Source of the DNA: Candidatus Aminicenantales bacterium
GTDB lineage: Bacteria > Acidobacteriota > Aminicenantia > Aminicenantales > Saccharicenantaceae
Direction of reading: 5' to 3'
DNA length: 64,000 bases
Assembly (NCBI GenBank): GCA_050015275.1
Contig: JBEKBS010000009.1
Span: forward strand, 719 to 64,718
The first letter of the stretch is position 1. Each line of letters starts with the position of its first letter. The position numbers and the translations under genes were made by a program. A model generated the notes under the pieces. It was not told the origin of the DNA. It made no database searches and saw only the letters and a program-made list of their open reading frames with translations. Shown one piece after another: positions 5,939-63,664 of the stretch.

Positions 5939-8059
5939 ATGGCGCATCATGGGGGAGGAACCGTGAGCCAACGTCTGCTTTGGTCCCTTGTTGCGCTCTT
6001 CACCATTCTCTCGGGAGCGGTCGCTGAACTCCGGTCACCGGCCGCTCGAAAGGACCCGGTGGCCTTGTGGACGTTCGACGAAGGATCGGCGACCCGGAGG
6101 GCGCTCGATGCGGCGAGCGGCGTCCAGGATGCGATCGAGGGGCATTTCAAGCTTGTCACAGGGATCTCGGGAACCGGCCTTAGGTTCGACGGCTACACCA
6201 CCCGCGTCATCCGGAAAGGAAACCGGGCTCCGCGCCTGGGCGAGGCGTTCACGATGGAGGCCTGGGTCGCCCCGGCGGCGCTGCCGTGGAATTGGTGTCC
6301 CGTCCTGAGCCAGGAGAAGGACGGGCTTGTCGGCTATTCTTTCGGGATCGGGCCCCAAGGCGAACTCGGACTGAGGGTCTCTGTCCGCGGCGAATGGAAG
6401 GAGTGCCTGTCGCGCACCAGGATTCCCACGGGAAAATGGACACATCTCGCGGCCGTTTTCGACGCCCGGAGTGGGATCACATTGTTCCTTGACGGCCGGG
6501 AGGCGGGCTCGCTGGCTTTTCAGGGGATCCCGGCCTATGCCGGCGGCGCGGACCTCCTGATCGGGATGAACCCCGAAAAGAGAAAGCCGTCGCACATCGT
6601 CGGGTCGGGCGTCGGAACGGTCGAAGGCTGGTATGCGTTCGACGGGATCATGGATGAGATCAGGATCTTCGATCGAGCGCTTTCCGCCGAAGAGCTGAAG
6701 CAAACCTATGAGTCTGTGCGGCCGGCCTCAGCCCCCGACCTCGCCGTCCCCCGGCTGCCTTCCGGCCCTCAAGGGCCGGGGCGTTTCGGGGCTTATTATA
6801 CGAAGCTCCGGTACGACGACGGCTGGGATGCCCTGTGGCCCGTCGGTCCGGCCGCGGACATCGTCGTCGAGTTCGACGATTCGCCGGTCCGCGTCGTTTT
6901 CTGGCGGGGGACGCGCTACGGCCCGGCCTGGGTCATGGAGAACGGACAGTGGCTGGCCGACCAGAGCGTCGAAACATGGGACGACACCGAGGGCTGCTAC
7001 GAGCACATGGAAGACCCTCGCTGCCTCTATTCCCAAGTCCGGATCCTGGAATCGAGCGAGGCCCGGGCCGTGGTCCATTGGCGCTATGCCCCCGTGAGCT
7101 CGCGCAACCATTTCTGGCGGGTCGACGAGAAATCCGGCTGGGGATTATGGATGGACGAATATTACTATTTTTATCCCGACCTGACGGCCGTCCGCAAAGT
7201 GGTTTGGCCCGCAGAATTCCTGGGCCGGGAATCACCGTCCGAAATCCAGGAAACCATCCCCCTGTGCCAGCCCGGTCAAAGCTCCGAGGACGTCCTGAAC
7301 CGGGACGCCCTGACGCTTCTCAACCTGAAAGGGGAGAGCCAGGTGTACTCCTGGCCCGGAGAGATCAATGATCCTGACCACCGCCGGAAGCTCCAGCCCG
7401 AGAATCCGAATATCCAGGTCGTGAACCTGAAGTCGAAGGCCAAGCCCTTCATCCTCTTCGAACCGGGCTGCCAGATGAATGTTTATGTCGGGAGGGTCAG
7501 GGCCGGCGTCTCGAATTTCCCCGCGTACAACCACTTTCCGGTCTCTCTCCTGCCTTCGGACGGCCGGTACGCGGTGGCGGCCGACCGCGTGACGAGTTTT
7601 TCCATCTCCTACACCGATCCTCCGAGGCACGCCGGGCCCGAAGAGACCACTTGGGCGAGTTGGGTCTATGGCGTCACGGAGGGCCCGTACAGAGGCCTGG
7701 CGGCGCTCGGAAGGTCCTGGGCCCTAGCGCCGGCCTTGTCCGTTCAGGGTCCCGGCCTTCGTTCCGAAGGCTATGACCTCTCGCAGCGAGCCTATGTGCT
7801 TGCCTGCCCCCACCCAGGGAGGCCGGAGGCCGTGGTCTGCGAGCTCCAGGCTGCCCCGGAAAGGCCGGCGGTGAATATCGTGCTTTATCTCCGGGGCTGG
7901 GGCGACGGAGGCGCCGCGGTGACGGTGGATGGACAGCCCGTCGAGCGCGGCCCGGCCCTCAAGCTTGGATATGTGCGAACGATCGACGGGACCGATCTTG
8001 TGGTCTGGATCAAGAAGGAGTCGGTCCGGCCGGTCCGCATCGGCTTGGGGCCCCGATGA
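5939..8059 (+). CDS. Secreted uncharacterized protein with an N-terminal concanavalin A-like/LamG (Laminin_G_3) domain and a large C-terminal domain of unknown function
   Basis: A signal peptide follows MAHHGGGTVSQRLLWSLVALFTILSGAVA. The LamG-like block (about aa 40-260) has conserved Trp/Gly pattern ...WTFDEG...GLRFDGY...EAWV...KWTHLAAVFD...LFLDG. The remaining 450 aa have no family I can name. A TTG 12 nt upstream overlaps the Fe-ADH stop. Confidence 0.65.
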   Translation: MAHHGGGTVSQRLLWSLVALFTILSGAVAELRSPAARKDPVALWTFDEGSATRRALDAASGVQDAIEGHFKLVTGISGTGLRFDGYTTRVIRKGNRAPRLGEAFTMEAWVAPAALPWNWCPVLSQEKDGLVGYSFGIGPQGELGLRVSVRGEWKECLSRTRIPTGKWTHLAAVFDARSGITLFLDGREAGSLAFQGIPAYAGGADLLIGMNPEKRKPSHIVGSGVGTVEGWYAFDGIMDEIRIFDRALSAEELKQTYESVRPASAPDLAVPRLPSGPQGPGRFGAYYTKLRYDDGWDALWPVGPAADIVVEFDDSPVRVVFWRGTRYGPAWVMENGQWLADQSVETWDDTEGCYEHMEDPRCLYSQVRILESSEARAVVHWRYAPVSSRNHFWRVDEKSGWGLWMDEYYYFYPDLTAVRKVVWPAEFLGRESPSEIQETIPLCQPGQSSEDVLNRDALTLLNLKGESQVYSWPGEINDPDHRRKLQPENPNIQVVNLKSKAKPFILFEPGCQMNVYVGRVRAGVSNFPAYNHFPVSLLPSDGRYAVAADRVTSFSISYTDPPRHAGPEETTWASWVYGVTEGPYRGLAALGRSWALAPALSVQGPGLRSEGYDLSQRAYVLACPHPGRPEAVVCELQAAPERPAVNIVLYLRGWGDGGAAVTVDGQPVERGPALKLGYVRTIDGTDLVVWIKKESVRPVRIGLGPR

Positions 8060-10720: not shown

Positions 10721-11728
10721 ATGGCAACGAAGACCACAGCGGAGAAGGACGGGGCGAAAACCGGGGCGGGGTTCGACCGGCGGGAAAGGATAAGCGGCCG
10801 GACCCTCGGGCTGGTCATCTCGACCGTCGTCCTCTTCGCGATCCTGGCGCTTCGTTCCCAAAGCTTCCTCAGCAGCTACACCATGTTCGTTATTTCGCGC
10901 CAGATGGCGTTCTATGTCCTGATCGCTCTGTCGCAGGCCTTTTGCCTTGTCGTGGGCCAGATGAGCCTGGCGGTCGGAGCGATCGGCAGCATCGCCACCG
11001 TTGTCCTCGGCCTGGGACTCGATACCTGGGGCCTCCCGGCAGGCCTGGCCGTGGCCCTGGCCCTGGGCGTCGGCGTTCTGGCTGGCTGGCTCAACGGCCT
11101 GATCATCACCCGCCTCAGGATCGATTCGTTCATCGTCACGCTGTCCATGATGTTCATCTTCATGGGTTTGCGCTCTGGCATCTCGGGCGGATCGCCCTAC
11201 AAGGTCTCAGAGTCATTTAGCGTCATCGGCCAGAAAAGCCTCTGGGGGGTCCCGTTCGTTTTCATTCTCGTGGTCCTTCTGCTGGGGCTTATCGGATTCA
11301 TGTACAGGAACACGGTCTTCGGCCGCCGGATGCTGGCCACGGGCGGCAACGCGGCCGCGGCCCGGCTGTCCGGGATCCATACCGACCGTATGGTCATCTC
11401 GGCCCACGTCCTGTCCGGGGCGTTCGCGGCGCTGGCGGCCGTCCTGTGGGCGTCCAAGCTCGGCTCGGCCGCCCCCGAAACCGGCGACGATTGGCTGATC
11501 ATCTCGTTCGCCGTAGCCATCATCGGCGGGACAGGGCTCAACGGCGGGATCATCTCCGCGCTCGGGATCTTCATGGGGTCGTCCATTTTCATGCTCATCA
11601 AACACGGGCTGGTCGAGGTCAAGGCGAACCCCTATTACGCCAACTCGTTTCTCGGCCTGCTCATCCTGCTGGCGATCGTCGTCGACCGGGTCCGGGAAAT
11701 TTATAGCGGCAAACAGAAAGGGAGATGA
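10721..11728 (+). CDS. Sugar ABC transporter permease (RbsC/branched-chain family)
   Basis: The ATG at 10721 is preceded by GAGGAAGG. About 9 predicted TM helices are present; the conserved permease loop has several possible placements. The long upstream extension in the ORF track (10427 onward) is out of context. Confidence 0.85.
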   Translation: MATKTTAEKDGAKTGAGFDRRERISGRTLGLVISTVVLFAILALRSQSFLSSYTMFVISRQMAFYVLIALSQAFCLVVGQMSLAVGAIGSIATVVLGLGLDTWGLPAGLAVALALGVGVLAGWLNGLIITRLRIDSFIVTLSMMFIFMGLRSGISGGSPYKVSESFSVIGQKSLWGVPFVFILVVLLLGLIGFMYRNTVFGRRMLATGGNAAAARLSGIHTDRMVISAHVLSGAFAALAAVLWASKLGSAAPETGDDWLIISFAVAIIGGTGLNGGIISALGIFMGSSIFMLIKHGLVEVKANPYYANSFLGLLILLAIVVDRVREIYSGKQKGR

Positions 11729-56335: not shown

Positions 56336-56360
56336 GCGGTCAAGGGCAACCTCGCTGCCC

Positions 56361-56390
56361 GAAAAGGGGGCGGCCCGAGCTTCCCTTTTG
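56361..56390. terminator. Candidate bidirectional terminator between convergent rhaT and potD
   Basis: GAAAAGGGGGCGGCCCGAGCTTCCCTTTTG has an A-run, GC stem, T-run arrangement. Confidence 0.35.
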
Positions 56391-56391
56391 G

Positions 56392-57495
56392 TCAGTCCGC
56401 GGACTTGACCCGGTCCCAGACCTTGATGTAGAGGGCGTTGGCTTCCTTCAGGTTGGCGATGATCTCGCTCTTCGCCAGGATTTCCTGTTTCACGAAGATG
56501 CCGGGATTGTTCCGGATTTCGGGATCGAGAAGCGGATAGGCGTCCTTGTTCGGGCAGAGATAATAGATGAAGTCCGTGTTCTCGGCGGCGACCTTCGGGT
56601 CGTGGAGGAAATTGATGAAGGCGTGGGCCAGGGCGACCTGGTCGGAGCTCTTCGGGATGACGAGGTCGTCGCAGGAGATGATCGTTCCCTCCTCGGGGAT
56701 GAAGAAGCGGACGTCCGGGTTTTCCTTCCGGACCTGGAAAACGTCGCCGTTCCAGGCGTGGACCAGGAGGAACTCGCCGGAGGCCAGGCCAAGCTTGTAC
56801 TGCTCGTTGTCGAACTTGGCCAGGTTCTTCTTCCAGCGCAGGAGGACCGCCTCGGCCTCGAGGAGCTCTTTTTCGTTGACGGTGTTGATGCTGTATCCCA
56901 GGGACTTGAGGGCGGCCCCGATCGATTCCCGCATGTCGTTGAACATGGTCATCCGGCCCTTGAGGTCCTTCCGGTCGAACATTTCCCAAGTCGGCCTGAT
57001 ATCCTTCACCCGGCCTTCGAGGTAGGCGATCCCGCTCCAGACGAGCATGTAGGGCACGGAATGGTCCATCGTCTTGTCGACCGTGATCTTGAGGAATTCC
57101 GGGTCCACGTGGCTGATATTCGGCAGCCGGGCATGGTCGAGCCGGAGGAGCATGTCCTGGTCGAACATCAGGCTGACCATATAGCTCGTCGGGGTGAGGA
57201 CGTCGTATCCGGTCGCGCCCGCCTTGAGCTTGGCGTACATGGCCTCGTTCGATTCGAAGGTGTCGATGACGACGCGGCAACCGTTCTCTCGCTCGAACCT
57301 CCGGACGAGCTCGGGCTTGATGTAATCGGCCCAAGTATAGACGCTCAGGACCGGCCTCGATTTTCCGCAGCCGCCGGGGAATAGGAGCGACAAAGCCAGA
57401 AGGACAAGGATCGTGCGGGGCGGGGCCGGCCGGGTTCCGGCCGGGACGGCCGGCAAGCCTGGGGAACGCCTGTTTCCGGTTTCGGGATCCCTCAT
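56392..57495 (-). CDS. potD: Spermidine/putrescine ABC transporter periplasmic substrate-binding (lipo)protein
   Basis: The PotD/PotF-family pattern is present (VYTWADYIKPEL..FE...G..V..D.FESNE, DVLTPTSYMV). A signal with LLFPGGCG is present. The upstream part of the ORF-track ORF (to 58350) is an artefact. Confidence 0.8.
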   Translation of the reverse strand: MRDPETGNRRSPGLPAVPAGTRPAPPRTILVLLALSLLFPGGCGKSRPVLSVYTWADYIKPELVRRFERENGCRVVIDTFESNEAMYAKLKAGATGYDVLTPTSYMVSLMFDQDMLLRLDHARLPNISHVDPEFLKITVDKTMDHSVPYMLVWSGIAYLEGRVKDIRPTWEMFDRKDLKGRMTMFNDMRESIGAALKSLGYSINTVNEKELLEAEAVLLRWKKNLAKFDNEQYKLGLASGEFLLVHAWNGDVFQVRKENPDVRFFIPEEGTIISCDDLVIPKSSDQVALAHAFINFLHDPKVAAENTDFIYYLCPNKDAYPLLDPEIRNNPGIFVKQEILAKSEIIANLKEANALYIKVWDRVKSAD

Positions 57496-59381: not shown

Positions 59382-60545
59382 CTATTCCCCGTTGAAGGGC
59401 TCGCCGACCTTCTGCGGCGGGACGGCAAGCAGGCCCTCGTCGGCCTTCCGGAAATGGTCGAGCATGAAACCGTCGTCGGCGTGCCACCAGATCCAGGCCT
59501 CGTCCTTCCAGCGCAGGGGTTTCTCGTCGAGGAAATAGCGGGCGTGCTGGCGGAGGACCTGGATCCTGTAGCCCGCGACCCGGACCCAGTATTTCGTGTT
59601 CGAGCCGAGGTAGATGACGTCCTCGACGACGGCCGGGAGGTAATTCCGTTGCGGCTCTTCCTCGGGCCGCTCATGGGAGATATGGATCTTCTCGGGCCGG
59701 ATGCTGAGATAGATCGGCTGGACGGGCTGGAGGTGCTTGTCGTTGAAACAGAGGATCCCGGGCAGGCCCGCGATGTCCAGGCGGCAGTATTCGCGGTCCG
59801 GGCAATCGAGGACCCGGCCCTTGAGGAAATTCGTGTCGCCGATGAAGGCGGCGACGAAGCTCGTCCGGGGAGATTCATAGATCTCGGCCGGCGCCCCCAC
59901 CTGCTCGATCCGGCCGCTGTCCATGACCGCGATCCGGTCGCTCAGGCTCATGGCCTCGGCCTGGTCGTGGGTGACGTAGAGAAAGGTGATCCCGACCTCG
60001 TCGTGGATGAGGTCGAGCTCGATGAGCATCTTCTGGCGGAGCTTGAGGTCCAGGGCCGCGAGCGGCTCGTCGAGAAGCAGGACGTCGGGCCTGTTGATCA
60101 GGGCCCGGGCGACGGCGACCCGCTGTTTCTGGCCGCCGGAGAGGAGGTCGGGCCTCTTGTCGGCCTGGTCCGTCATCTGGATGAGGTGGAGCATTTTGTC
60201 GACCTCGGCGCCGATCTCCGTTTTCGGCCGCTTGGCGATGGCCAGGCCGAAGGCGATATTGTCCCGGACCGTCATGTGGGGGAAGAGGGCATAGCTCTGG
60301 AAGATCGTGTTGACCTTGCGCTCGTTCGGGGGGAGGTCGGTGATGTCCCGGCCGTCGAGGAACACGCGGCCGGCGTCGGGCTCTTCGAACCCGGCCGCGA
60401 GACGGAGCATGGTCGTCTTGCCGCAGCCGCTCGGCCCGAGGAGAGAAAAGAATTCCCCCTTCTTGATCTCCAGGGAAACGTCGCCGACCGCCTGGATGGT
60501 TCCGAAACGCTTGGAGACGCCGCGGAACTCCAGGAACTCAGCCAA
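59382..60545 (-). CDS. potA: Spermidine/putrescine import ATP-binding protein
   Basis: Walker A GPSGCGKTT, Q-loop, signature LSGGQKQR and Walker B LLLDEPLAALD are present, with a C-terminal regulatory/TOBE-like domain. Confidence 0.9.
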   Translation of the reverse strand: MAEFLEFRGVSKRFGTIQAVGDVSLEIKKGEFFSLLGPSGCGKTTMLRLAAGFEEPDAGRVFLDGRDITDLPPNERKVNTIFQSYALFPHMTVRDNIAFGLAIAKRPKTEIGAEVDKMLHLIQMTDQADKRPDLLSGGQKQRVAVARALINRPDVLLLDEPLAALDLKLRQKMLIELDLIHDEVGITFLYVTHDQAEAMSLSDRIAVMDSGRIEQVGAPAEIYESPRTSFVAAFIGDTNFLKGRVLDCPDREYCRLDIAGLPGILCFNDKHLQPVQPIYLSIRPEKIHISHERPEEEPQRNYLPAVVEDVIYLGSNTKYWVRVAGYRIQVLRQHARYFLDEKPLRWKDEAWIWWHADDGFMLDHFRKADEGLLAVPPQKVGEPFNGE

Positions 60546-60660
60546 CGAAGGGAACTCCTTGGTCGGAAGGGCTCGGGGCGGTGGAACACGGGAAAACGGG
60601 CATCGCTCGTCTCAAGGCCGTATTATGAAAAAAATATCCCGGCATTTCAATAATTATTAA

Positions 60661-60755
60661 TTCGGTGACACATAACTCATTACCGAAATTAAGACATAAA
60701 GAATCGGGTGATCATTAGGTGATCATTAAGTGTATTGAGTTGTGCGTCACCGAAT
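60661..60755. repeat. Copy 1 of a roughly 95-bp AT-rich repeat element with terminal imperfect inverted repeats (TTCGGTGACAC...GTGCGTCACCGAA)
   Basis: The core TTCGGTGACACATAACTCATTACCGAAAT plus the distal GTTGTGCGTCACCGAATG recur at 63037..63130. Copy 1 lies in the divergent region between potA and the beta-lactamase-family gene. Confidence 0.5.
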
Positions 60756-60911
60756 GAGAGGCCGGTTTGAACTCCCTCGTCACGACTTGCGTATATAGAG
60801 CCTGAGGCCCATTTGCGGGCCGCTGAACCCGTATGGTAAAGTATGGCGAGTTTTGATGTCCGATATCCGCAGATCCTGTCTTTTTATTAAGGTCCGGACA
60901 AGGAGGCTTAG

Positions 60912-63029
60912 ATGAACCGCTCTGTCAGGAATTCCGTTTTTATCGCCCTCGTCCTGTTTTTGTCCGCAGGCGTCCCGTCACTCGCGGCCGCACCGCCCGA
61001 CCTCGCCGGTCACTGGGACGGGGCGATCGTCCTGCCGGCCATGAAGGTTGAGTTCAACCTCAACTTCATGAAGCAGGCGGACGGTTCCTGGAAAGGGGAC
61101 ATCTCGATCCCGATCCAGAACATCAAGAATATGCCTTTGTCCGATATCAAAGCCGACGGGGCGAAAATCTCCTTCGCCATGCCCGGGATCCCGGGGAACC
61201 CGGCCTTCGCCGGCACGCTGAACGCGGACGGGAACAAGCTCGCCGGGGATTTCACCCAGGGAGGGCAGAAATTCACGTTCGAGATCGCCCGGGGCGCTGA
61301 CCCCGCGGCCAAGGCCAAAAAGGCCCTGGAAGGCTTCGACGATGTGGTGACCCAGGGCCTGGCCAAGATCAACGTCCCCGGCGCGGCCGTCGCCGTCGTC
61401 AAGGACAACGAGGTCATTTTCGCCAAGGGGTTCGGCTACAAAGACCTCGAAAAGAAACTCCCCATGACCCCCGACACCCTCATGGCCATCGGATCATCCT
61501 CCAAAGCCTTCACGACCTTCGCCCTGGGCACCCTCGTCGACCAGGGTAAAGTCGAATGGGATAAGCCGCTCCACAATTACATCCCCTGGTTCCGGCTCTA
61601 TGACCCCCAGGCCGGCGAGCGCCTGACGCCCCGCGACCTGGTCACTCATCGCTCCGGGCTGCCCCGCCACGACCTCGTCTGGTACAACAATTTTACATCG
61701 ACCCGCGAGCAGCTCGTCCGCAGCCTGGCGTTCCTCCCTCCGAGCGCAGATCTCCGCGAGCGCTGGCAATACAACAACCTCATGTTCCTCACGGCCGGCT
61801 ACCTGGTCGAGGTCCTGACGGGGAAGCCCTGGGAGGATTCGATCCGGACGCTGGTCTTCAATCCCCTGGGGATGACCCGGAGCAACTTCTCCGTCGTTGA
61901 TTCGCAAAAGGACAGCGATTTCGCCCTGCCTTACACCGAGCGCGACGGCAAGCTCGTCAAGATCCCCTTCCGCAACATCACCAACATCGGCCCGGCCGGG
62001 GCCATCAATTCAAGTGTCAACGAGATGGCCCATTGGGTCATGGTCCATATCAACAATGGGAAATATAGGGACGCGCAGGTCATTAATCCCGTCACCCTCA
62101 ACGACATGCACTCGGCCTACATGCCCACGGGGGCGACCTCGACCCGCCCGGACATCTCCCCGGCGGATTACGGTCTCGGCTGGTTCATCGACACCTACCG
62201 CGGGCACCAGCGGGTCGAGCACGGCGGGAATATCGACGGCTTCTCGGCCTTGGTCTGCCTTTTCCCGAAGGACGGGCTCGGCTTTGTCGTCCTGACCAAC
62301 AAGAACGGCACGCCCTTCCCCGGCCTCGTCGTCCAGACCGCCGCTGACCGCATCTTCGGTCTCGAGGCCGTTGACTGGATCGGTGAAGCGGCCAAGAACC
62401 AGACCGAGGGCAATGAGGCCCAGAAAACGGCCGAGCAGAAGAAAGCGGCCCGCCGCCGCCCCGGGACGACGCCCTCCCACAAACTCGAAGAATATGCCGG
62501 CGACTACTGGCATCCCGGGTACGGCGCCCTCGAGGTCGAGCTCAAGGAAGGCCGTCTCCGCTTCACTTATAACGCGATCACCACGCCCCTCGAGCATTGG
62601 CATTTCGACACCTTCAACGGCCTGAAGACCGACGATCCCACCTTCCAGGATATGAAGCTGACCTTCCGGACCGACGTCAACGGAAACGTGGCGGCCTTGG
62701 CGGTGCCCTTCGAGCCGACCCTGGACGAGATCGTTTTCACGAAGAAGCCGGAAGCGAAGCTCTCCGACTCCGCTTACCTCAAGAACGTCGTCGGGACTTA
62801 CCAGCTCATGCGCCAGACCATCACGGTTGGCTTGAGAGGCGCCAGCCTAACGCTCGTCCTTCCCGGCCAGCCCGTCTATGACCTCGTGCCCGAGCTCGGC
62901 GGCGAGTACTCTCTGAAGCAAGCCAAGGTCGTGAGCTTGAGGTTCATCGAGGACGCCAAGGGACTTGTGACGGGCTTGGAGATCAACCAGCCCGGCGGCG
63001 TCTTCGAGGCGAAACGGGTCAATAAGTGA
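60912..63029 (+). CDS. Beta-lactamase-family serine hydrolase (class C/PBP-like fold) with an N-terminal beta-rich domain and a C-terminal DUF3471-like domain
   Basis: A signal peptide is present. The catalytic SxxK is in GSSSKAFT, YxN is YNN and the KTG-like motif is HGGN. The product is 705 aa. Confidence 0.85.
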   Translation: MNRSVRNSVFIALVLFLSAGVPSLAAAPPDLAGHWDGAIVLPAMKVEFNLNFMKQADGSWKGDISIPIQNIKNMPLSDIKADGAKISFAMPGIPGNPAFAGTLNADGNKLAGDFTQGGQKFTFEIARGADPAAKAKKALEGFDDVVTQGLAKINVPGAAVAVVKDNEVIFAKGFGYKDLEKKLPMTPDTLMAIGSSSKAFTTFALGTLVDQGKVEWDKPLHNYIPWFRLYDPQAGERLTPRDLVTHRSGLPRHDLVWYNNFTSTREQLVRSLAFLPPSADLRERWQYNNLMFLTAGYLVEVLTGKPWEDSIRTLVFNPLGMTRSNFSVVDSQKDSDFALPYTERDGKLVKIPFRNITNIGPAGAINSSVNEMAHWVMVHINNGKYRDAQVINPVTLNDMHSAYMPTGATSTRPDISPADYGLGWFIDTYRGHQRVEHGGNIDGFSALVCLFPKDGLGFVVLTNKNGTPFPGLVVQTAADRIFGLEAVDWIGEAAKNQTEGNEAQKTAEQKKAARRRPGTTPSHKLEEYAGDYWHPGYGALEVELKEGRLRFTYNAITTPLEHWHFDTFNGLKTDDPTFQDMKLTFRTDVNGNVAALAVPFEPTLDEIVFTKKPEAKLSDSAYLKNVVGTYQLMRQTITVGLRGASLTLVLPGQPVYDLVPELGGEYSLKQAKVVSLRFIEDAKGLVTGLEINQPGGVFEAKRVNK

Positions 63030-63036
63030 TTTCCTC

Positions 63037-63130
63037 ATTTCCCCATTCGGTGACACACAACTCATTACCGAAATAGAGTTCGGCAGAGCCCTCCGAATAA
63101 TTTAGCGCATTGCGTTGTGCGTCAGCGACG
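63037..63130. repeat. Copy 2 of the roughly 95-bp repeat element (TTCGGTGACACACAACTCATTACCGAAAT...GTTGTGCGTCAGCGACG)
   Basis: It lies between convergent gene ends (beta-lactamase-family gene and HXXEE gene), so it is not a promoter element. Its distal arm has diverged. Confidence 0.5.
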
Positions 63131-63138
63131 TTCTCAGT

Positions 63139-63531
63139 TTAAGAAACGGCCGGGCCTCTGCGCCCAGGCATTTCTTTTCTGAGGTGGCGAATGAGCGGCC
63201 AGGCGACAACGAGCATGACAAGCCCGCTGAATCCGCCGGCATAGCCATCGAAATAACGGCCGGTCACGATCGTGGCGACGTTGTGACCGAGTCCCTGGAG
63301 TCCCATGAATCCGGCGTAGAGGAAGCCGAGCCAATACGCCCAGCGTTTTCGCTTGAGGATAAAGTACAAAAAAGCCACCGGGATCAGAAAGAGGATCCCG
63401 TTGATCGCGAGGAACCCGGTCAGCCCGATTCTCTGGAGAATCCAGAATCTTCCCCAGATCTCCTCGAAGACGTGGGCGATATGGGCCAGGAGCATCAGAA
63501 GATAAAAGAGAACGGCCCGGCTTTTCATCAC
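63139..63531 (-). CDS. HXXEE-domain membrane protein
   Basis: An HIAHVFEE motif sits in an N-terminal TM helix, with four predicted TM segments. The HXXEE-domain family is recalled from memory. Confidence 0.55.
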   Translation of the reverse strand: MMKSRAVLFYLLMLLAHIAHVFEEIWGRFWILQRIGLTGFLAINGILFLIPVAFLYFILKRKRWAYWLGFLYAGFMGLQGLGHNVATIVTGRYFDGYAGGFSGLVMLVVAWPLIRHLRKEMPGRRGPAVS

Positions 63532-63664
63532 CGAATATCCTGGACTCGGGTGAATCGAATGTCAAGGCCGGGCGCGTGAGGCTTGGCTGCGCGTTGACTT
63601 TGCCCCTTGTGCTGTCATATAAAGCAAGACAATGCCCGGATCAGCCGACTCAAAAGGTGATAGC

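Follow-up and report, generated by a model that had tools for sequence, protein, structure and literature searches.

Two AT-rich elements that bracket a beta-lactamase-family gene in Candidatus Aminicenantes belong to a dispersed hairpin-repeat family linked to a Y1 transposase

We analysed a 64-kb window of DNA from a Candidatus Aminicenantales bacterium (contig JBEKBS010000009.1), in which two AT-rich elements with inverted-repeat ends lie on either side of a gene of the beta-lactamase family. Positions are given in the numbering of this window throughout, and loci retrieved from other genomes and from metagenomes are cited by L numbers. Both elements are real, and both belong to a dispersed family of hairpin repeats. 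Arms of the same family also flank the gene of a transposase that resembles the tyrosine transposases associated with repetitive extragenic palindromes (REPs), known as RAYTs. The bracketed gene stands between a divergent operon of the ATP-binding cassette (ABC) type and a convergent gene for a small membrane protein. The features of the locus are as follows.

59382-60545, minus strand: potA-like ABC ATPase gene, the divergent neighbour of copy 1
60622..60650, minus strand: promoter-like site of the potA-like ABC operon, TTGAAA-17-CATAAT
60661..60754, no strand assigned: copy 1, 94 nt, one A-type and one B-type arm joined as an inverted dimer
60661..60689, plus strand: left arm of copy 1, A type, TTCGGTGACACATAACTCATTACCGAAAT, which matches the arms flanking the RAYT-like gene (L180, L153) at 28/29 positions
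60707..60728, plus strand: variable centre of copy 1, GGTGATCATTA twice in tandem
60725..60754, minus strand: right arm of copy 1, B type, with the reverse complement TTCGGTGACGCACAACTCAATACACTTAAT
60912..63029, plus strand: 705-aa serine hydrolase gene (Beta-lactamase PF00144 and DUF3471), bracketed by the elements and outside them
63046..63129, no strand assigned: copy 2, 84 nt, oriented as copy 1, with a decayed right arm
63046..63074, plus strand: left arm of copy 2, A type, TTCGGTGACACACAACTCATTACCGAAAT
63100..63129, minus strand: right arm of copy 2, a degenerate arm of the B type (4 mismatches within the 19-nt core)
63139..63531, minus strand: 130-aa membrane-protein gene, convergent, adjoining copy 2

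A preliminary description of the window had placed copy 1 at 60661-60755 and had started copy 2 at 63037, which is 9 nt too early. It had also reported an imperfect terminal inverted repeat, and indeed the ends of copy 1 form a 24-nt inverted repeat that is 88% complementary. Comparison of the two copies showed that their left arms agree at 28 of 29 positions and share the form TTCGGTGACACA(T/C)AACTCATTACCGAAAT, while their right arms are 81% identical and their centres are unrelated. The degenerate right arm of copy 2 reads GTCGCTGAC in place of TTCGGTGAC. When up to 3 mismatches were allowed, the 29-mer occurred twice in the window, against 0.00 occurrences expected from 100 shuffles. Neither short-word BLAST nor fuzzy matching detected any further copy in the 64 kb beyond the four arms. 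Folded as single-stranded DNA, copy 1 reached -20.5 kcal/mol (z = -6.5) and copy 2 reached -14.4 kcal/mol (z = -2.2). A single GGTGATCATTA unit is present in the centre of copy 1 at locus L003 (9606-9690), where it adjoins a scaffold gap, and this suggests a small copy-number polymorphism of the unit.

The two copies occupy different settings, as had been described: copy 1 lies in a divergent promoter region and copy 2 between convergent gene ends. From the stop codon of the 705-aa gene it is 16 nt to the start of copy 2, and from the end of copy 2 it is 9 nt to the stop codon at which the convergent gene ends. Copy 1 is located 10 nt upstream of the -35 box of the promoter-like site of the ABC operon and leaves the site undisturbed; the site is kept in relatives both with and without the element. 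The low GC content ascribed earlier to the start of the enclosed gene was found as well, limited to the 5′ leader and the signal-peptide region.

The distribution of the family was examined in two scans. The first used the exact 19-mer TTCGGTGACRCAYAACTCA on the GTDB collection with one genome per species and returned 43 loci, about 30 of which belong to at least seven metagenome-assembled genomes (MAGs) of Candidatus Aminicenantes, SPRUCE 605, SPRUCE 645 and MFD03726.bin.3.73 among them. The remaining matches were scattered singles in unrelated taxa, in a number near the chance expectation. The second scan, with the A-arm pattern, resulted in 117 metagenome loci with 277 arms, from peat and freshwater sediment, and the window locus itself is present in many peat metagenome assemblies. 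The family therefore recurs well beyond the window with conserved inverted arms, in about 30 MAG loci and 117 metagenome loci, and is linked to a transposase. This bears out the preliminary suggestion that the elements are mobile or repetitive rather than a promoter and may form a genome-wide family. Among the papers listed in our literature search, none described such repeats in Aminicenantes.

One further MAG, SRP098346_co1_98, is labelled 'uncultured Eubacteriales'. It holds three true family matches (L013, L022, L024) and sequence that resembles Aminicenantes loci, and because it carries both, the label is probably wrong. Its elements are 233-237 nt long and have a common GC-rich insert of about 150 nt.

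From 78 aligned arms we derived the consensus A-W-TTCGGTGACACAYAACTMA, followed by TTACCGAAAT in the A type or by ATACRCTTAAT in the B type. Outward, the arm ends sharply, with A at position -2 in 92% of arms and no conservation further out. A full element consists of two such arms of about 30 nt, inverted around a short variable centre, and the element flanks act as an extension of the inverted repeat (AW...WT). The 203 non-redundant elements divide into 108 dimers and 95 solo arms. Among the dimers a length of 73 nt is commonest (33 cases), a second group lies near 83 nt, and longer dimers hold unrelated inserts. The family is nearly always intergenic, with a single element of the 203 inside a predicted gene. 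Where a gene 3′ end adjoins an element, the distance to the stop codon has a median of 7 nt and does not exceed 20 nt in 74% of cases. Solo arms point their outer end toward the stop codon in 47 cases versus 2. Genes bracketed by two elements were searched for a transposase and proved to be ordinary metabolic genes; they encode a nitroreductase, a racemase, a kinase of the APH family, a methyltransferase, a fucosidase and a GH127 enzyme, among others.

Partial tandem duplication is frequent in the outermost 12-16 nt of the arms (TTCGGTGACAC), also at the transposase locus described below. We noted such duplications at L175 8731-8765, L046 4458-4475, L160 11345-11375, L099 5960-5982, L178 7795-7832 and L153 1519-1545. 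Either slippage or repeated rounds of cutting and rejoining at the terminus could have produced them.

Long inward-facing arm pairs about 0.9 kb apart in L153 and L099 enclose the gene of a 230-aa protein, which matches the Pfam family Y1_Tnp with E-values of 1.5e-11 and 2.4e-10, respectively. Other long inward-facing pairs (L148, L106, L146, L069, L080) enclose only ordinary genes, among them a major facilitator superfamily (MFS) transporter, L-PSP and SnoaL. In all, a Y1_Tnp gene within about 150 nt of the arms was present in four of the loci that had been selected by their arms. Besides L153 and L099 these are L133 and L166, in which a homologue with 56-57% identity lies at most about 130 nt from the arms. 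Altogether, inverted arms flank the transposase gene in L153, L099, L133, L166, L175, L178 and L180. The flanking arms are of the A type, inverted, and match the window arms at 28/29 positions. Beside the 56%-identical transposase they are variant arms with the distinct core GACAGTCAAC, and protein and repeat have therefore diverged together.

The position of the transposase gene is conserved. Homologues at 89%, 78% and 71% identity share one locus, in which tRNA-Met, one or more arms, the gene, again one or more arms and rpoD-dnaG follow one another. The transposase locus of L153 and L099 is this same place between tRNA-Met and rpoD, and its relatives span 71-100% identity. For the 89% homologue (P0121), all 10 places shown have the single tRNA-Met/rpoD context. 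One peat sampling series yielded both the transposase contigs and the contigs of the window organism; among the samples listed, the two sets have none in common.

The protein and its homologues are 230-237 aa long and carry NHVH as the HUH motif, YVECNP as the tyrosine motif, a WQ motif and the tail motif YPWSS; YVECNP agrees with the Y---NP signature of class 2 (PMC6006769). The best NCBIfam match was to the REP-associated tyrosine transposase (58.7 bits versus 18.6 bits for IS200), and the best match in the PDB was TnpAREP of E. coli (4ER8). Pfam gave no match for a C-terminal helix-turn-helix in the transposase. Judged from sequence and gene order, the repeat family is best read as the cognate repeat of an apparently single-copy, vertically inherited RAYT-like HUH/Y1 transposase, in what would be a TIRtron/REPtron arrangement. 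From the precedents of E. coli and of IS200/IS605 we infer that the transposase mobilises the repeats.

We then compared the bracketed gene with its relatives. The 705-aa protein has thousands of homologues, the close ones being about 705 aa long; one of them, from Candidatus Aminicenantales, bears the annotation serine hydrolase. The gene is divergent from the same ABC operon in relatives at 82%, 79%, 80% and 70% protein identity. The copy-1 site is empty in three of these four (L055, L056, L057), and in L054 it holds a 13-nt remnant only. Since its synteny with the ABC operon extends to relatives free of the element, the gene predates the repeats and is ancestral at the locus. Orthologues of copy 1 were found in L017, in L050, where another repeat is nested inside, in L078, and as the remnant in L054. 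Those of copy 2 are present in L017, within a hybrid element in L034, and also in L056, where the old copy is decayed and has lost its arm complementarity. The SPRUCE 605 orthologue of the locus has copy 1 only. What looks like a mobile beta-lactamase cassette is a conserved chromosomal serine hydrolase between two genomic repeats, and not a mobile resistance gene.

The preliminary description had proposed to look for relatives that lack the gene. It is absent only in derived loci, which hold a single hybrid element. In SPRUCE 645 (L034) and in the metagenome contig L120, the left flank of copy 1 is followed by one element with the body and right flank of copy 2, and, judged by the T/C difference at arm position 12, the crossover fell in the left arm, no more than about 12 nt from its outer end. 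L160, from a separate freshwater-sediment assembly and 95% identical to SPRUCE 645 at the ABC gene, lacks both the 705-aa gene and the adjoining 130-aa gene. L017 is without the 130-aa gene; the segment absent there starts where the copy-2 arm has its outer end. Recombination between the two direct copies appears to have deleted the gene in a sister lineage and to have left the hybrid element behind. Such a deletion is possible because the copies are direct repeats with common left arms of 29-30 nt; it could have taken place by homologous (RecA-dependent) recombination between the arms or by action of the transposase. L160 supports the deletion allele as real, and L160 and SPRUCE 645 may share one ancestral event. 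The locus shows the repeat pair as a deletion substrate, with the gene and both repeats, the gene and one repeat, or the hybrid and no gene as the states observed.

Gene content also varies around this point. We compared window positions 60546-63600 with the orthologous regions of L017, L034, L050, L054-L057, L112 and L160, and the content differs among close relatives. Between the ABC operon and an amino-acid permease gene, the hydrolase and the 130-aa gene occur together, each by itself, or not at all; other relatives have the hydrolase with URO-D and more, or with a small open reading frame and secA. This makes the stretch from the ABC operon to the permease gene a small island of variable content, several junctions of which carry family repeats. 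Outside it, SPRUCE 645 has about 1.1 kb of extra sequence between the RhaT-like and solute-binding-protein genes (L034 5523-6682 versus window 56341-56405). L056 has a BNR_2 gene at the position of this indel, where we detected no family arm.

Two other repeat families were encountered in these comparisons. One, of about 110 nt (CTGAAGCTCCACGGMYTTAC...GGATCCAACTTTYGCAGGCTTTGGAGCGCC), occurs at L050 4758-4862, L040 ~5760 and L160 ~11375-11440. It has been mobile since the copy-1 element arrived, because it is nested in the right arm of the SPRUCE 605 orthologue of copy 1. The other, in the same genomes as the main family, is an inverted-repeat family with GGGGACAC termini (L051 ~1100-1260, L037 2848-3000, L015 ~7030-7060). 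These termini are an exact match to the GGGGWSAS motif of TIRYT-flanking repeats, and the family may have a transposase of its own.

Taken together, we propose that the two elements are old resident hairpin repeats cognate to the transposase, that the gene came first, that its bracketing is incidental and that it was later deleted in some relatives. We assign this explanation a probability of about 0.75. By analogy with E. coli TnpAREP and with IS200/IS605, the transposase would recognise the arm on single-stranded DNA, cut it and rejoin it. Arm dimers would be copied in this way into new AT-rich sites just past stop codons, with the target not duplicated, and copies would then decay into solo arms. 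At the window locus, repeats would have landed later in both spacers that flank the pre-existing beta-lactamase-family gene, and recombination between the direct copies would have removed the gene in the sister lineage.

Several observations weigh against this explanation. No insertion polymorphism that would attest recent mobility was found between near-identical genomes. The transposase gene has no match in the 64-kb window, and its score of 58.7 bits falls below the 80-bit cut-off that NCBIfam curates for RayT. A single arm forms only a weak hairpin and is without the GT[AG]G foot of canonical REPs, and for this reason the E. coli recognition model may not transfer directly. The divergent promoter setting of copy 1 is a minority context, shared by 17% of family copies. 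L034 and L120 are possibly one assembly, so that the deletion allele rests on that assembly and on L160, and with L160 at 95% identity there was possibly one deletion event rather than two. Apart from these points, we compared filled and empty sites in orthologous pairs (L052/L053, L046/L047, L047/L049, L023/window). Arms are gained or lost and synteny breaks lie beside arms, and the pairs were too diverged or rearranged to give base-exact boundaries.

The alternative that survives best is a structural or regulatory hairpin selected by the host, such as a stabiliser of RNA 3′ ends, a terminator or a protein-binding site, and not transposed at all. The 73-nt consensus is very stable as single-stranded DNA (-25.1 kcal/mol, z = -9.6), copies lie right past stop codons, orthologous copies are kept across species, and secondary roles of such a kind have been reported for E. 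coli REPs (PMC6006769). However, nearly half of the copies are solo arms and unable to form the hairpin: a lone A arm reaches -3.9 kcal/mol with a 6-bp stem and a 15-nt loop, and the B arm does not fold. The old copy of L056, too, is without arm complementarity. Rfam gave no match in the window at the gathering threshold and none at either element at E ≤ 10, and neither a terminator-like call nor a U-tract was obtained at copy 1 or copy 2. Covariation was absent from the 23 copies of the 73-nt class (term -0.05), which are too similar to each other to reveal it, and a common C/T variant of one arm is uncompensated in the other (8 U-G and 2 C-A versus 2 U-A). Elements of the AB form also display no orientation bias relative to the upstream gene (14 versus 12). 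A secondary role acquired by some copies is compatible with all of this, yet it would leave the spread of the family unexplained. We consider host selection in place of transposition unlikely, and favour repeats spread by their transposase.

We regard a classical MITE (a miniature transposable element with inverted repeats) as more doubtful still. Here the elements would be internally deleted derivatives of an insertion sequence with a DDE transposase, mobilised in trans, and the pair would be a composite that carried the gene in, as the preliminary description had considered. Terminal inverted repeats of about 24-30 nt, a small AT-rich non-coding body, many dispersed copies with a variable interior, and the coincidence of gene presence or absence with the elements would all suit a MITE. 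Against it, 27 dimers revealed no target-site duplication at any offset or length tried, 2-4 and 8-9 bp included, and about 1.3 Mb of loci contained no insertion sequence with these termini. What lies between arms paired at distances of 0.6-4.6 kb is either ordinary genes or the Y1 transposase. Insertion of the gene by such elements does not hold up, because the gene has the same place beside the ABC operon in L055, L056 and L057, which are without the copy-1 element, and the SPRUCE 605 orthologue has copy 1 alone; this part of the alternative is largely refuted by the element-free syntenic relatives. A resident gene, with transposase-cognate repeats arriving later, accounts for the locus better in our view.

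Least probable is a site-specific recombination cassette of the integron attC or Xer/dif kind, with arms as recombinase sites and gene and element mobile together: it would explain the single hybrid element of L034 as the remainder expected after excision between two sites, the many single genes bracketed by elements, and the ACACAAC and GTTGTGT of the arms, each a 6/7 match to what we take to be the attC R′′ and R′ cores, but the 10 kb to either side hold no gene for an integrase or recombinase, the genes between elements are ordinary metabolic ones in conserved synteny and both orientations, the stem, a near-perfect continuous duplex of 19-20 bp, shows neither the unpaired spacer nor the extrahelical bases of attC, the enzyme associated with the arms is a Y1 HUH transposase, identical arms of 29-30 nt suffice for homologous recombination, and the gene keeps its constant place beside the ABC operon.

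For repeats cognate to a RAYT-like transposase, the closest known kind is the TIRtron/TIRYT variant of the REP-RAYT systems. In TIRtrons, RAYT-like genes (TIRYTs) are flanked by long inverted repeats at the termini (TIRs) that are unlike GTAG REPs (Di Nocera et al. 2013, PMC3733652). Some of these repeats share the motif GGGGWSAS, and some form genomic families of singles, dimers and groups (PMC3733652), which are only moderately abundant and occur in a limited number of genomes (Di Nocera et al., PMC3733652). The Aminicenantes family likewise has a RAYT-like Y1 gene between long non-GTAG inverted repeats that are also dispersed as singles, dimers and groups. Its arm sequence GGTGACAC matches GGGGWSAS at 7/8 positions, not exactly. 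It differs in that both the phylum, Candidatus Aminicenantes, and the arm sequence are new, and in that the dimers are numerous and uniform, with a 73-nt master form, and in this respect are REPIN-like.

TIRYTs probably correspond to subclass 2.1 of TnpAY1, which is Group 1 of Bertels (Quentin et al. 2018, PMC6006769). The row of the published table for this subclass gives a length of about 238 aa together with the motifs NHVH, W[EQ], YIELNP or Y[IV]HLNP and an SS tail (PMC6006769). It is the best-fitting row for the Aminicenantes protein, with YVECNP against YIELNP, by comparison of motifs and length only. No REP-like sequences were reported near genes of subclass 2.1, the second largest subclass of the family (PMC6006769), and the RAREFAN preprint associates REP and REPIN repeats with Groups 2 and 3 only.

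The REPIN-RAYT systems of Gammaproteobacteria, such as E. coli TnpAREP with REP and bacterial interspersed mosaic elements (BIMEs) or the REPINs of Pseudomonas, are similar in having a syntenic Y1 transposase between inverted repeat copies. Their repeats, too, are extragenic and mostly downstream of genes, come as singlets, inverted doublets and clusters, and show no target-site duplication (PMC5581495). Unlike a REP, the single Aminicenantes unit lacks both the 5′ GT[AG]G foot and the character of a G+C-rich imperfect palindrome, and only the dimer folds. Its transposase, moreover, is not of Group 2 or 3 by motif and falls below the NCBIfam RayT cut-off. Bacterial MITEs (Correia, ERIC, MITEAba12) resemble the Aminicenantes repeats in size, terminal inverted repeats, intergenic place, long hairpin and variable centres. 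They differ from them in that the Aminicenantes repeats have neither a target-site duplication nor a parental DDE insertion sequence, and are associated with a Y1 HUH transposase.

From these comparisons we put forward, tentatively and at somewhat less than even odds, that the family is a REPIN-like population with a uniform master dimer of 73 nt and, by extrapolation, of the order of 100 copies in each genome, which persists across species and is kept by a single-copy, vertically inherited transposase of the subclass 2.1/Group 1 type. If true, long-lived partnerships of repeat and transposase would be far more widespread than the Gammaproteobacterial examples. The arm would then work as a dimer, not as a self-folding REP, and the repeats would mark the edges of gene-sized deletions in a variable island. 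To Candidatus Aminicenantes, which is known as a phylum from metagenomes only, the locus adds a populated repeat family and its cognate RAYT-like transposase, and the transposase is probably of a type whose associated repeats are reported to be absent or rare. The family may possibly extend REPIN-like biology to the transposases of Group 1/subclass 2.1.

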